A DNA stretch of 64,000 bases from Candidatus Hydrogenedentota bacterium (GCA_963668025.2 CAXXTH010000017.1:1312001-1376000); one strand, 5' to 3'. Shown: positions 16,174-25,500, counted from the stretch's first letter. Notes: generated by a model not told the origin, from the letters alone. Translations and numbers: made by a program.

Positions 16174-17256
16174 ATGCACAGGAGAGGATTCACATTAATT
16201 GAGCTGTTGGTTGTGATTGCCATCATCGCGATACTTGCGGCAATCCTGCTGCCGGCTTTGGCGCGGGCTCGTGAGGCGGCGCGCCGCGCTTCTTGCGCGA
16301 GCAATCTGAAGCAGTTTGGTATTATTTTCAAGATGTATTCCAATGAGAATAAGAGCAAGTTCCCGCCGATGGCGACGAAGTCGCGGCTGGATGTCAATTC
16401 GGGCATCTTCGGATACATGCTGGGTTTCGATGGCGCGGAGTTGTATCCCGATTATTGGAATGATCCCTCGATCGTACGCTGCCCTTCGGATGCGTCAGGC
16501 GATTATGTCGGCAAAGATGTGTTCAAGATGGAATCCGATTATAACGCGATGATTGACAGGGTGGCTAAATCGACTACAGGCACTGCGGACGCGAAAAAGC
16601 TTTGCTTGGAATCCCTTCTGTCGGTTCCGATTTCTTATTGCTATAGCGGTTTCTTGGCGATGACCGAGTCCCAAATCGCGGATTATGCCTGGTCAAAAGC
16701 GAACTTCTGGTATCCGCCATATACCAAGAATATTATGGGAACCACTTCTTGCGTGTTTTCGAATGTGGATGTATCCGCTGTGGATTCGTCAGCGTGCGGC
16801 TTAAAGGTCTACACCTGTTCTTGCACGCTGCCGGACACATTGAAGTCGCTGTATAAGCCTCTTGGATTTAAAGACAACGACGGCGTGACCAATCTTCCCG
16901 ATAGTTATTATGCGCTCAAGGAAGGCGTCGAGCGTTTCATGATCACCGACATCAACAATCCCGCCGCTGGATCAAATGGCCAAAGCACCATGCCGGTCAT
17001 GTGGGATGCCTATGTGAACAACGCCACGCTGGCGGGAGCCAGCGATGCGGGTGTCGCGCGCTTCAATCACGTGCCGAGCGGTTCCAATGTGCTATACATG
17101 GATGGCCATGTGAGTTTTGTCCGGTTGAATGCCGCATCGCCGATTGGCTCGGAATTCTCAAATAAGTCCATAGCGGGAAGCACATCTGGAACCGGCCAGA
17201 TTGGCAACCAATCGTATTGGCAATGGACGCTGTCCTATATGGGCGGCATGGGTTGA
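16174..17256 (+). CDS. DUF1559 prepilin-type N-terminal cleavage/methylation protein (copy A)
   Basis: [16 protein letters not shown] class III signal, [17 protein letters not shown]-terminal [17 protein letters not shown] (H-X9-DG-like motif with a 10-residue spacer). Confidence 0.95.
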
Positions 17257-17298
17257 CATATATAAAAGTCCTATAGTGTAAAAATGTCCATCATGCAG

Positions 17299-17340
17299 GG
17301 GCTGGCCGTTCAAATTGTTGCCCACGAGAACGGCCAGCCC
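17299..17340 (+). terminator. strong hairpin 3' of DUF1559-A (no U-tract; stabiliser or attenuator)
   Basis: 13-bp perfect stem GGGCTGGCCGTTC/GAACGGCCAGCCC. Confidence 0.55.
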
Positions 17341-17371
17341 AAGCGTACATGAAAGAGGGCAAGAGTGGGAT

Positions 17372-22862: not shown

Positions 22863-24022
22863 CGAAACCGGAATTAGGCGTGGGCATTCTTGGGTTCGGC
22901 TTCATGGGCCGGACCCATACCTATGGCTTGGTGAATCTGCCCTTGTTTTACGAGCCGCTTCCGTTCCGGGTGAAGCACGTGTCGGTCTGCACGCCAGTGC
23001 CAGCCGAACAGGAGACGGCGCAATCCATGGGGTATTACCACAAAGTGGTGGCGGATTACCGCGAACTCATTGATGATCCCGAGATCAATGTCATCACGGT
23101 GAGTTCGCCCAATAAATTCCACAAGGAACAGCTCATCGCCGCGATTCAGGCCGGCAAACATGTCTATTGCGACAAGCCGGTGGCGGCGTCTATTCAAGAC
23201 GCGGAAGAAGTGCTCGATGTGATGAAGCAAACCGGGTACCGAGGCAAGAGCCAAGTCGCCCTGCAATACCGCTTCTTCCCGGCGACGATGCGCGCCAAGC
23301 AATTGATTGACGAGGGATTTCTGGGGCGGGTGTTCCACTATCGCGGCGGATACCTGCACTCGAGCAACATCAATCCCAAAAAGCCGATCAACTGGAAGTC
23401 CGATAAAGGGCAAGGCGGCGGCGGGTCGCTGTTCGACATGGGCGCGCACACCTTGGACATGATGACCTATCTGCTCGGTGACATCACCCAGATCAATGCC
23501 CTGTGCGAGACCTTCATCAAACAACGCCCGAGCAAAGAAACGGGGGAGATGGTGTCCGTGGACACCGACGACGCCGCGCTGATGATGCTGCGCCATGCGA
23601 ATGGCGCGGTGGGCATGCTCGAGGCCACTAAATTCGCTACGGGCATTTGCGATGAATTGCGGTTCGAAATACACGGAGAGCTAGGCGCGATACGATTCAA
23701 TCTCATGGCTCCCAATTGGCTGGAGGTGTATGACGTGCGCGATTCGGATTCTCCCATGGGCGGGATGCGGGGCTTTAAGCGCATCGAGTGTGTGCAGCAA
23801 TTCCCGAAACCTGGCGGCGGGTTTCCCAATCCGAAATTTAGTATTGGGTGGATTCGCGCCCACATGCATTGCATGTATAGTTTTTTGGCGAGCATTGCAA
23901 ACGACACCGTTCCCCGTCCCACGCTGGAAGAGGGCATTCAACTCCAGCGGGTGATGGCCGCCGGATACCGCTCCGCGGAATCGGGGAGATGGGTCCAGCC
24001 TTCGGATATTGCTGTTTCTTAG
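22859..24022 (+). CDS. Gfo/Idh/MocA family oxidoreductase
   Basis: GILGFGFMG Rossmann motif, GKHVYCDKP, GGSLFDMGAH; GTGA overlap with the aminotransferase. Confidence 0.93.
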   Translation: MTKPELGVGILGFGFMGRTHTYGLVNLPLFYEPLPFRVKHVSVCTPVPAEQETAQSMGYYHKVVADYRELIDDPEINVITVSSPNKFHKEQLIAAIQAGKHVYCDKPVAASIQDAEEVLDVMKQTGYRGKSQVALQYRFFPATMRAKQLIDEGFLGRVFHYRGGYLHSSNINPKKPINWKSDKGQGGGGSLFDMGAHTLDMMTYLLGDITQINALCETFIKQRPSKETGEMVSVDTDDAALMMLRHANGAVGMLEATKFATGICDELRFEIHGELGAIRFNLMAPNWLEVYDVRDSDSPMGGMRGFKRIECVQQFPKPGGGFPNPKFSIGWIRAHMHCMYSFLASIANDTVPRPTLEEGIQLQRVMAAGYRSAESGRWVQPSDIAVS

Positions 24023-24108
24023 GATGGTTGCCGGTAAACACGCCTGGCTATTCGCCATGAGGTAATGGCGCATAGCCAGGCAAATGCATGAAAGGGAGAT
24101 CGTTCATC

Positions 24109-25500
24109 ATGAGCGCGGGATCAGGAGAATATAAAGATTCAGGCCAAGCAAGCGCAGGCTATTTGTACTTCCTGTCCATTACAGCAGCAATGGGCGGTTT
24201 TTTGTTTGGATATGACTTGAACATCATTACGGGTTCGATGCTCTATTTGCAGGATTATTTCCACATTGAGAGCGCCGAGCTGGGCTTATTAACCAGCAGC
24301 GCCGTGTTTGGCTGCATTTTCGGGCCAATAGTAGCAGTGTGGATGGCCGATTCGCTGGGGCGGCGCAATTCGTTGTATGTAGCGGGCGTCCTGTTCTTCA
24401 TCTCGGCCGTGTGGAGCGCATTAGCGACTACCATACCTACATTCAATATTGCGCGGGCTATTGGCGGTATCGGAGTCGGCATTGCCACGGGCGTATCGCC
24501 GATGTATATCGCGGAGATTTCGCCGGCCCGGCTTCGCGGGAGAATGGTTACAATAAACCAGTTGTCCATTGTCGTGGGCATTGTGTTATCCGTGGTGGTG
24601 GCGCTTTGGCTTTCGTATGGCGGCCATTGGCGCTGGATGTTCGCTTCCGAATGTGTTCCCATCATCCTTTTAATGGTCGGCCTGATGTTCATCCCACGCA
24701 GCCCCCGCTGGCTTGCATCTAAAGGCAAAGACACTGAAGCCATGAAGGTGCTCACTTTTATTAATGGCGCGGAGCAGGCGGCGAAAGAAATAAAAGAGAT
24801 CAAATCCGAACTCGGACAAGAAGTGGGCTCGTTCAAGGAACTCCTTCAGCCGGGTATTCGCTATGCCTTGGTGGTGGCCTGCATTCTCATGATCTTTCAA
24901 CAGATCAATGGCGTGAATATGATACTGCTCTATGCCTCGAAGATATTAGTCGAAGCGGGCATTGGCAGCATATCGAACGCCCTGCTCAATTCGTTGTACG
25001 TCTATTTCTTGATTTTGCTTTGCACCGTGTTTTCTTTTTATATCGTAGCGAAATTCCCACGCCGCAAGATCATCATGGTGGGAGTCACGGGCATGGCCGT
25101 TGGCCACCTGTGCATGGCCTTTGCATTTTATAGCCAGATCTCCCCGTATGTAAACTTGCTGGCGATGCTGATCGCCACGGGCTCCTTCACGCTCACATTT
25201 GCTCCTCTTGGCTGGGTGGTGGTTTCTGAGATTTTCCCCAACCGCGTGCGCGGCAAATGCATGGGCATTGTGACATTCTTCCTCTTCACCTCCTCGTTCT
25301 TCTGCTCCTGGGCATTTCCTAATATCACCGATTATTTTGAAAAGCAATTTGGCACGCAAGCAGGCGCGTACATTTTCTTCGCCTGTATTTGCATGGCATG
25401 CGTGGGATTTGTCTGGAAATATATCCCCGAGACCAAAGACCTAACTTTAGAAGAGATCGGCCAGTTCTGGCTCAACCGTGGCCGGAATAGCGGGAAGTAA
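24109..25500 (+). CDS. MFS sugar porter (XylE/GalP-like), copy A
   Basis: GGFLFGYD, DSLGRR, YIAEISPARLRG, PRSPRWL, QQINGVN, SEIFP, PETK; about 12 TMs. Confidence 0.95.
   Translation: MSAGSGEYKDSGQASAGYLYFLSITAAMGGFLFGYDLNIITGSMLYLQDYFHIESAELGLLTSSAVFGCIFGPIVAVWMADSLGRRNSLYVAGVLFFISAVWSALATTIPTFNIARAIGGIGVGIATGVSPMYIAEISPARLRGRMVTINQLSIVVGIVLSVVVALWLSYGGHWRWMFASECVPIILLMVGLMFIPRSPRWLASKGKDTEAMKVLTFINGAEQAAKEIKEIKSELGQEVGSFKELLQPGIRYALVVACILMIFQQINGVNMILLYASKILVEAGIGSISNALLNSLYVYFLILLCTVFSFYIVAKFPRRKIIMVGVTGMAVGHLCMAFAFYSQISPYVNLLAMLIATGSFTLTFAPLGWVVVSEIFPNRVRGKCMGIVTFFLFTSSFFCSWAFPNITDYFEKQFGTQAGAYIFFACICMACVGFVWKYIPETKDLTLEEIGQFWLNRGRNSGK

Follow-up and report, generated by a model that had tools for sequence, protein, structure and literature searches.

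Two anciently duplicated sugar cassettes of a Hydrogenedentota bacterium, each pairing a DUF1559 prepilin-like gene with a secreted beta-propeller gene

The DUF1559/H-X9-DG proteins are among the largest unexplained families of environmental bacteria, with dozens to ~100 copies per planctomycete genome (PMC10632474, PMC8567305). P. limnophila has 68 DUF1559 paralogues, two of which are essential on standard medium (PMC10632474). In T. immobilis, 91 proteins combine N_methyl and SBP_bac_10 domains; their genes show an even spread over the genome and in many cases have signal-peptide genes at their flanks. Proteomics detected 25 of the 91, and such proteins were found in membrane fractions (PMC8567305). 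The DUF1559 family has been termed "exclusive to the PVC superphylum" (Planctomycetes, Verrucomicrobia, Chlamydiae; PMC4807772). The literature that we searched contained nothing proposing or testing a glycan-capture role for these proteins. Here we describe a stretch of 64,000 nucleotides from Candidatus Hydrogenedentota bacterium (GCA_963668025.2, CAXXTH010000017.1:1312001-1376000; hereafter the window, with positions counted from its first nucleotide), in which two DUF1559 genes lie in two related sugar cassettes, A and B, each directly 5' of a gene for a secreted beta-propeller protein.

Pfam and NCBIfam scans covered the 42 open reading frames (ORFs) of at least 100 aa in the window. They confirmed the gene order given by an initial annotation for each cassette, namely a DUF1559 prepilin-like gene, then a secreted propeller gene and later a sugar porter of the major facilitator superfamily (MFS). 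The same annotation had proposed that the pilin-like protein captures glycan and delivers it to the hydrolase and porter, as an analog of a polysaccharide utilization locus (PUL); cross-genome comparison gave weak support for the pilin as a sugar-capture system. The reading that we prefer, with a probability of about 0.5, is that A and B are two anciently duplicated and otherwise conventional sugar operons under DeoR-type regulation, in which the DUF1559 protein has an accessory role in the envelope, its pairing with the propeller being lineage-specific, and is not an uptake device.

No TonB-receptor, Plug, SusD or ATP-binding cassette (ABC) solute-binding domain was found by Pfam in any of the 42 ORFs, and no ABC genes are among them, which bears out the annotated absence of a TonB-dependent receptor, SusD and ABC binding protein. 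Domain scans together with a six-frame scan revealed no type II secretion system (T2SS) or type IV pilus (T4P) machinery and no PilM-type domain within the window; the two prepilin motifs detected in the six-frame scan both belong to the DUF1559 genes. The genes of the cassettes, and the second DeoR gene, are as follows (GH, glycoside hydrolase).

13016..13846 (+): DeoR-family regulator, first gene of cassette A (Pfam DeoRC 147.5 bits, HTH_DeoR 52.8 bits).
13965..16016 (+): exported GH51-type alpha-L-arabinofuranosidase-like enzyme (PDB phmmer E 1.2e-28 to GH51 arabinofuranosidases; NCBIfam ArfA 71.7 bits, under cut-off; hydrophobic N-terminus).
16174..17256 (+): DUF1559/H-X9-DG prepilin-like protein A, 360 aa (N_methyl 36.5, PF07596 41.8 at model positions 2-43 of 268, TIGR04294 21.5 bits).
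17372..19348 (+): secreted beta-propeller protein A, GH-F clan-like (Pfam GH43 36.7 bits, partial; profile nearest GH117, E 4e-6; signal-peptide-like N-terminus).
19383..21461 (+): exported 692-aa protein of no family (no Pfam, NCBIfam or PDB sequence match; hydrophobic N-terminus).
21486..22862 (+): class-III aminotransferase (Pfam Aminotran_3 307 bits).
22859..24022 (+): GFO/IDH/MocA oxidoreductase, levoglucosan-dehydrogenase-like (Pfam; NCBIfam NF052479 268 bits against a cut-off of 650).
24088..25500 (+): MFS sugar porter A (Sugar_tr 322.5 bits; TIGR00879 327.7 bits against a cut-off of 237.8).
29915..30739 (-): second DeoR regulator, paralog of DeoR-A (Pfam; 73% nucleotide identity to DeoR-A).
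37192..38724 (+): fucose/sulfoquinovose isomerase-like sugar isomerase, cassette B (Fucose_iso_C 34.1 bits; NCBIfam SftI 88.6 bits against a cut-off of 700).
38878..39957 (+): DUF1559/H-X9-DG prepilin-like protein B, 359 aa (N_methyl 35.6, PF07596 36.3, TIGR04294 25.3 bits).
40103..42073 (+): secreted beta-propeller protein B (88% aa identity to A; Pfam GH43 30.0 bits against a cut-off of 32.2).
42118..43200 (+): 360-aa protein of no family (no Pfam, NCBIfam or PDB sequence match).
43267..44685 (+): MFS sugar porter B (Sugar_tr 308 bits; 79% aa identity to A).
44743..48033 (+): GH106-like alpha-L-rhamnosidase-type enzyme (Pfam Glyco_hydro_106 73.3 bits; NCBIfam matches under cut-off).

The levoglucosan-dehydrogenase-like oxidoreductase of cassette A overlaps translationally with the class-III aminotransferase; together with the recurrence of such oxidoreductases near propeller homologs (see below), this hints at an oxidative or amino-sugar step.

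At least 676 relatives of the propeller protein, with 42-52% identity, are distributed among Hydrogenedentota, Verrucomicrobiota, Acidobacteriota, Bacteroidota, Chloroflexota and others; outside this genome, no homolog exceeded 52% identity among the matches listed. The Pfam GH43 match (36.7 bits for A and 30.0 for B, cut-off 32.2) spans ~85 of 288 positions, and the nearest PDB match of the propeller profile is to GH117 anhydrogalactosidases (E 4.2e-6, over ~100 residues). Of 205 confirmed genomic loci with propeller homologs, 80 were examined (designated by L numbers below), yielding 981 called ORFs. Pfam was applied to 125 of 272 selected neighbors at positions ±2 and to targeted sets of 34, 57 and 15 proteins, the remaining neighbors being screened by custom hidden Markov models (HMMs) or phmmer alone.

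The neighborhoods proved highly variable. The commonest partner cluster occurred in at most 8 of the 80 loci, and the neighbors at ±2 range from resistance-nodulation-division (RND) efflux proteins, FtsH and DNA polymerase III to GH4, GH31, GH123, GH127, fucosidase and sulfatase. A GFO/IDH/MocA oxidoreductase lies within two genes of the propeller in five loci (L003, L016, L031, L037, L073), as it also does in cassette A. Within Bacteroidota, three of eight loci have a Plug/TonB receptor no more than three genes away: L051 reads FecR-SusC-SusD-propeller amid GH140-like, GH78, GH38, GH29 and sulfatase genes, and Plug-domain receptors stand near the propeller in L057 and L071. Since the Bacteroidota homologs are found in TonB-receptor/SusD loci together with other glycosidases, the propeller family is glycan-related; it is not tied to one uptake system. 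This Bacteroidota setting, seen in L051, L057, L071, L043, L074, L076 and L080, includes GH140 apiosidase-like, GH78, GH38, GH29, GH127, melibiase and sulfatase genes, and the propeller ORFs of L057, L071, L074 and L076 (1249-1263 aa) have a long N-terminal extension.

An iterated HMM search detected 19 pilin-like ORFs in 15 of the 80 loci. Six of these, in L024, L039 and L064, were rejected as DUF1559 genes, as they belong to core T2SS operons in which one ORF per locus matches Pfam T2SSG and stands beside T2SSK, T2SSM or PilM-type genes. The 13 long H-X9-DG-type ORFs that remained, in 12 loci, were distributed as follows.

DUF1559 less than 1 kb from the propeller: 5 loci (L004, L006, L022, L052, L067), in 148.8 kb of flank.
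DUF1559 at 1-3 kb: 3 further loci (L007, L011, L013), in 270.8 kb of flank.
DUF1559 at 3-6 kb: 4 loci (L027, L030, L040, L059), in 338.6 kb of flank.
DUF1559 at 6-10 kb: 0 loci, in 386.5 kb of flank.

The corresponding densities are 3.4, 1.1, 1.2 and 0 loci per 100 kb. When related loci were merged, three of nine fell within the nearest flank (P = 0.10). The co-directional arrangement of the window recurred in one of the 80 loci, L052, while in L006, L022 and L067 the two genes are divergent neighbors. Of the 74 rows of the propeller tree, 10 carry the label "pilin-like ORF within 3 kb", among them L064 and the two copies of the window. The label requires 7 changes on this tree, where shuffling gives 9.6 on average, and close propeller relatives disagree on the DUF1559 neighbor (L022 versus L003, L052 versus L048). 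The adjacency of DUF1559 and propeller genes is therefore labile and the pairing lineage-specific.

The partners themselves also differ. DUF1559 proteins encoded near propellers elsewhere are 27-40% identical to those of the window and represent different subfamilies. The closest DUF1559 relatives in the protein database (P0122, P0123, P0125, P0126) are 60-73% identical; as the propeller evolves no faster than DUF1559 here and none exceeds 52% outside this genome, these relatives are evidently without an orthologous propeller. A tblastn search of a plasmid collection with DUF1559-A gave no match at E 1e-8 or at 0.01. A porter like that of the window was found once among the 981 ORFs. Long DUF1559 genes in other loci also stand beside genes for UbiD, quinolinate phosphoribosyltransferase, biotin ligase, an epimerase, an M32 peptidase and RND efflux proteins.

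These comparisons bear directly on the capture model, according to which substrate-specific DUF1559 minor pilins in a common T2SS/T4P-type fiber would bind glycan and, by retraction or proximity, hand it to hydrolase and porter. The model has an analogy in the capture of DNA by competence pseudopili. Its core was not supported by the comparison: the pairing is labile (5 of 80 loci, and 1 of 80 in the window's orientation), the porter is all but absent (1 of 981 ORFs), the enrichment has P = 0.10 once related loci are merged, and the two cassettes are a single event (see below). Moreover, the nearest DUF1559 relatives (60-73%) are without a matching propeller above 52%, the propeller-adjacent proteins elsewhere (27-40%) belong to other subfamilies, neighbors elsewhere are of housekeeping type (UbiD, quinolinate phosphoribosyltransferase, biotin ligase, RND efflux), and the head of the window's protein has no Foldseek match in the PDB at E ≤ 0.001 and no likeness to a lectin, a carbohydrate-binding module (CBM) or a solute-binding protein. 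MFS porters are not known to need or use a binding protein. Several features nevertheless speak for the model, namely that the DUF1559 gene is embedded in an operon with exported enzymes and the window has no SusC/D or ABC protein, that the head contains a hypervariable patch (residues 161-220 between A and B, 165-230 in the family), that a stem-loop consistent with a high-copy structural subunit follows the gene, that DUF1559 density falls with distance from propeller homologs, that an independent co-directional pair exists in L052, and that in L051 it is SusC-SusD which occupies the position directly 5' of the propeller. Reports of dextran-binding fibers (PMC5394234) and of a pilus hypothesis for Akkermansiaceae (PMC13174399) point the same way. 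On balance, we consider the capture model rather unlikely; none of the observations refutes glycan binding itself.

Comparison of the two cassettes with each other showed 66% aa identity for DUF1559, 88% for the propeller and 79% for the MFS porter, with 73% nucleotide identity for DeoR; the flanking ceramidase-like and GH5-like genes are likewise duplicated. Synonymous divergence (dS) ranges from 2.1 to saturation in the DUF1559, MFS, DeoR, ceramidase-like and GH5-like pairs. In the propeller pair, codons 1-200 are as diverged as the other pairs, while codons ~200-656 have a dS of 0-0.2; the 3' two-thirds (~17970-19348 versus 40700-42073) underwent recent gene conversion, which largely accounts for the likeness of the two propellers. 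Because the cassettes are paralogous with saturated dS, they constitute one evolutionary event and not two observations. Thus, the statement that each cassette has the same propeller is correct in that both carry it, but its weight is reduced, since the copies stem from one ancient duplication and their likeness is partly an artefact of conversion. Duplicated cassettes of this kind are not to be tallied as independent linkage evidence.

The DUF1559 pair, with a dS of 2.1 and a ratio of nonsynonymous to synonymous divergence (dN/dS) of 0.13, is under purifying selection. This argues against a reading without any functional link, in which a member of a high-copy family with a general envelope role unrelated to sugar would have landed by chance 5' of the propeller before the duplication and been copied along with it. 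Such an accident is made easier by the enormous size of the family: the DUF1559 profile matched 348,809 representative clusters at E ≤ 0.001, 199,493 at ≤ 1e-10 and 1,985 at ≤ 1e-30, out of 1.84 billion, although many of the 348,809 share merely the pilin helix with it. The 68 paralogs of P. limnophila with their two essential members (PMC10632474), the even spread of the genes in T. immobilis (PMC8567305), the mixed housekeeping neighbors elsewhere and the disagreement between close propeller relatives (L022 and L003, L052 and L048) are consistent with it as well. However, both copies kept the gene, its order and its stem-loop under purifying selection, whereas exchange affected other genes of the cassettes, namely those that separate propeller and porter. 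In addition, the DUF1559 gene is probably co-transcribed, being without a promoter signal of its own, and the family is modestly enriched near the propeller family. We regard the absence of any functional link as unlikely.

The initial annotation had noted that DUF1559 is much expanded in Planctomycetes-like lineages. The TopA relatives that carry a source name, from 72% identity downward, are all Hydrogenedentes or Hydrogenedentota, apart from one row labeled FCB group (Fibrobacteres, Chlorobi, Bacteroidetes); judged by this marker, the host lineage is Hydrogenedentota, neither PVC nor Planctomycetes-like. The case thereby extends the range given for the DUF1559 family in PMC4807772.

Both pilin-like proteins begin with M(H/Q)(R/K), and their class III signal peptides show Gly, Phe and Glu at positions -1, +1 and +5 together with a hydrophobic helix. 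Their annotation as prepilin-type DUF1559 proteins agrees with the family matches, which exceed the cut-offs for N_methyl (36.5 bits for A and 35.6 for B, cut-off 21.2), TIGR02532 (35.9 and 36.5, cut-off 16.3), PF07596 (41.8 and 36.3, cut-off 23.3) and TIGR04294 (21.5 and 25.3, cut-off 19), as well as with a modeled helix at residues 8-58 and with homology to GspG over residues 2-106 (97% hhalign probability for a profile of 59 relatives against Hydrogenedentota GspG). The PF07596 match is limited to model positions 2-43 or 2-45 of 268; as Pfam matches only the first ~43 positions, the head represents a divergent variant of the family. The proteins were rejected as GspG orthologs: their TIGR01710 scores (34.8 and 35.4 bits) stay below the cut-off of 88.85, and with 360 and 359 aa they are 2.5 times longer than GspG (~130-150 aa).

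The AlphaFold2 model of DUF1559-A (predicted local distance difference test score, pLDDT, 87.8; predicted template modeling score, pTM, 0.86) contains the helix at 8-58 and a mixed alpha/beta head, and thus has the lollipop architecture of a ~50-residue N-terminal helix and a globular head. Foldseek found no PDB match for the model at E ≤ 0.001, pilins aligning to the helix only (58-63 columns), and PDB sequence searches agree in finding no solved relative of the head, which is therefore not recognizably a lectin, CBM or periplasmic binding protein. At least 97% of the 59 sequences retain Cys41, Cys103, Cys144 and Cys208; the conserved blocks are 1-60, 85-110, 141-160, 235-275 and 291-318, and the hypervariable stretch is at 165-230. 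A and B are most diverged at residues 161-220 (35-42% identity), and the windowed dN/dS of the variable patch is 0.4-0.5, a value that, with dS saturated, speaks neither for nor against positive selection. On this modeling, the protein is best described as GspG-derived and pseudopilin-like, with a predicted disulfide-bearing head of ~300 residues; its head is a separate variant within the family, from a phylum that does not belong to PVC.

The GspG-like first 106 residues invite another explanation, in which the DUF1559 protein would be a cargo-specific pseudopilin that either aids T2SS export of the neighboring enzyme or holds this enzyme at the surface of the cell or on the pseudopilus. That the gene lies directly 5' of one for a protein with a signal peptide, in L052 as in the two cassettes, fits this role, and such genes are often flanked by signal-peptide genes in T. 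immobilis (PMC8567305). In one Hydrogenedentota clade, the propeller gene itself lies beside core T2SS genes: GspG/K/PilM/M-type genes are upstream in L024, L039 and L064, and T2SS-F follows downstream, after an RND efflux pair, in L023 and L075 (L077 has a member of the same 401-aa cluster as the downstream gene of L023 and L075, by cluster membership only). This adjacency is, however, confined to a single clade of the propeller tree and may reflect a single synteny event, and the DUF1559-propeller pairing is not conserved. T2SS cargo contacts, furthermore, are known for tip pseudopilins and not for GspG paralogs. An adaptor of this kind thus seems improbable.

The preferred reading, of regulated operons with an accessory DUF1559 gene, draws on the following putative signals.

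12945..12979 (+): promoter-like site 5' of DeoR-A, a 10/12 sigma-70 match with TG; core GGGTCTTGACAAA at 12945-12959, a 13-nt core being common to this site and cassette B.
36900..36927 (+): promoter-like core GGGTCTTGACAAA of cassette B at 36900-36914, followed by a 13-mer operator-like motif at 36915-36927.
30778..30790 (-): exact copy of 36915-36927, an operator-like 13-mer, within the promoter region of DeoR-2 (the second DeoR gene).
25523..25558 (+): canonical intrinsic terminator closing cassette A, an 11-bp GC stem and U7 (z -4.4; 0 of 200 shuffles as good).
17299..17340 (+): GC-rich stem-loop between DUF1559-A and propeller-A, a 13-bp perfect stem without U-tract.
39994..40037 (+): GC-rich stem-loop between DUF1559-B and propeller-B, a 14-bp stem without U-tract.

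The 13-mer of cassette B has one other exact copy in the window, that at 30778-30790, and a copy with two mismatches at 36684-36696 (+). It is a candidate DeoR operator that may link the second DeoR gene with cassette B, and the promoter core may extend this link to cassette A. DeoR control, as annotated for the cassettes, is accordingly plausible to different degrees: a DeoR gene heads cassette A, but the second DeoR gene (29915-30739, -) is not adjacent to cassette B, for which the 13-mer common to both promoters makes such control plausible only indirectly. Promoter- and terminator-like sites inside the cassettes showed no clear excess over shuffled sequence; cassette A has 21 sites of the terminator-like kind, where shuffling gave 13.6 on average (sd 4.4). 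The gaps between cassette genes are short or the genes overlap, and a canonical terminator was seen after MFS-A only. As no separate promoter signal was found at the DUF1559 genes, they are probably co-transcribed with their operons.

The spacer behind DUF1559-A folds at -43.7 kcal/mol (z -5.4), a value equaled by none of 200 shuffles, and the alternative TTG start of propeller A at 17315 overlaps its stem-loop. The best 50-nt hairpins after the DUF1559 stop reach -29.1 kcal/mol in A and -30.7 kcal/mol in B, the two stem-loops having differing sequence and a common position. For the long DUF1559 genes of the other loci, 4 of 13 gene ends fell within the lowest 3% of 953 other gene ends (one-sided Mann-Whitney P = 0.022). 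Stem-loops just 3' of DUF1559 stops are also present in L006, L007, L011, L030 and L067; they begin 0-35 nt past the stop (start of the fold window), mostly without a U-tract, and may be a family-wide expression feature. A search of the window with Rfam returned a tRNA alone, which places the stem-loops outside any described RNA family. They are probably mRNA-stabilizing or attenuating elements that would raise DUF1559 output over that of the downstream genes, an arrangement often seen with genes for structural subunits. The common DeoR-type operator motif and the strong stem-loops just 3' of DUF1559 genes are candidate elements newly noted here.

Taken together, the variable patch and the stem-loop would also suit a broader idea, namely that DUF1559/H-X9-DG proteins are interchangeable, locus-specific heads of a common GspG-type fiber, each induced with its own operon, made in excess by means of the 3' stem-loop, and binding glycan or presenting an enzyme. 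We think this doubtful. If it were true, Hydrogenedentota and PVC bacteria would run a pilin-based counterpart of the SusC/D PUL, and the two cassettes would be its first defined, paired example.

In the conventional operon that we prefer, a DeoR repressor would release the shared promoter and operator to which the observed motifs point. The Sec-exported GH51-like enzyme, the GH-F-clan propeller, the 692-aa protein and the GH106-like enzyme, whose family assignments are weak, would trim a complex glycan in the envelope, and the released monosaccharide would enter through the XylE-like MFS symporter, as assigned at the family level. Cytoplasmic processing would fall to the oxidoreductase and aminotransferase in cassette A and to the isomerase and an FGGY kinase near cassette B. 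Such a route would need neither SusC/D nor a binding protein. DUF1559 would be co-transcribed, the stem-loop probably keeping its message above that of the downstream enzymes, and its product would reside in the envelope, as an inner-membrane-anchored protein or as part of a T2SS/T4P-type fiber, with an accessory role.

Several points weigh against this interpretation. Its substrate, the location of its enzymes and the passage of sugar across the outer membrane are matters that we infer. The order DUF1559-then-propeller was kept in both copies across saturating divergence, and the hypervariable head patch fits a specificity determinant. Of the 12 loci with long DUF1559 genes, 5 have them within the nearest 13% of the flank, giving P = 0.013 uncorrected for kinship. 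In L052, from a Limisphaerales metagenome-assembled genome (Verrucomicrobiota), the two genes form an independent pair on one strand, 3 bp apart; the pilin-like protein there has 215 aa, an H-X9-DG motif and A|FTVTE. Finally, gold-dextran attaches to pili-like fibers of Planctomycetes (PMC5394234), and a type IV-like pilus locus of Akkermansiaceae has been proposed to mediate attachment to fucose-rich glycans (PMC13174399).

Further genes of the window were noted beside the cassettes. Under the second DeoR gene, 25579-29415 (-) encodes an aldolase of transaldolase/fructose-6-phosphate aldolase (TAL/FSA) type, a glyoxalase-fold protein, a short-chain dehydrogenase/reductase (SDR) and an aldehyde dehydrogenase; this set, with the SftI-like isomerase at 37192-38724, loosely resembles transaldolase-type catabolism of deoxy- or sulfo-sugars, as judged from sequence likeness. 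The ceramidase-like duplicates at 11227-12612 (-) and 35194-36552 (-), of 452-461 aa, match the N-terminal half of neutral ceramidase only, and ceramidase-like genes also adjoin propeller homologs in L030 and L051. A SIR2-like protein at 54733-55788 (-) (PADLOC Aga_SIR2 E 8.9e-13, Pfam SIR2_2) is encoded in the stretch of lowest GC content in the window (43.7%, 54001-56000) and may be an acquired defense gene. At 2-1030, a DDE transposase ORF runs past the start of the window, and beside it lies tRNA-Ala(GGC) (1146-1221), the sole RNA gene found in the window.

The locus offers a clean test case for the DUF1559 family, with two diverged paralogs in regulated operons, a variable patch, a candidate operator and a stem-loop conserved in place. 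If these proteins were substrate-specific fiber subunits, this would answer how glycan degraders without SusC/D acquire polymers.

Compared with described systems, the window's proteins share with the DUF1559/H-X9-DG families of Planctomycetota the N-terminal signature G|FTLIE, followed by LLPAL..AREAARR..C.NNLKQ, and the C-terminal H-X9-DG-type motif, over curated cut-offs; they differ in their Hydrogenedentota host, their divergent head and the embedding of the gene in a defined, regulated sugar operon. They resemble T2SS GspG in their class III signal peptide, in the long helix and at the start of the globular domain, but they are ~250 residues longer and encoded outside any gsp operon. The glycan fibers reported from PVC bacteria (PMC5394234, PMC13174399) represent a common concept, a glycan-binding type IV filament in lineages without SusC/D; the parts of these reports that were consulted state no DUF1559 involvement. 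The MUL2 locus of Akkermansiaceae combines PilM and a pilin in conserved synteny (PMC13174399), whereas none of the window's 42 ORFs encodes PilM. In the archaeal bindosome, as described for Sulfolobus (PMC3047682), a pilin-type signal peptide is likewise present on an extracytoplasmic protein encoded with sugar-uptake genes, but bindosome proteins are ABC-type solute-binding proteins that work with ABC transporters, in contrast to the window's head, which has no binding-fold match, and its MFS transporter. The SusC/SusD PULs of Bacteroidota also bring together a regulator, exported glycosidases and a transporter, and some of them contain homologous propellers; the cassettes described here lack a TonB-dependent receptor and SusD (0 of 42 ORFs), and their sugar uptake would proceed through an inner-membrane MFS porter.

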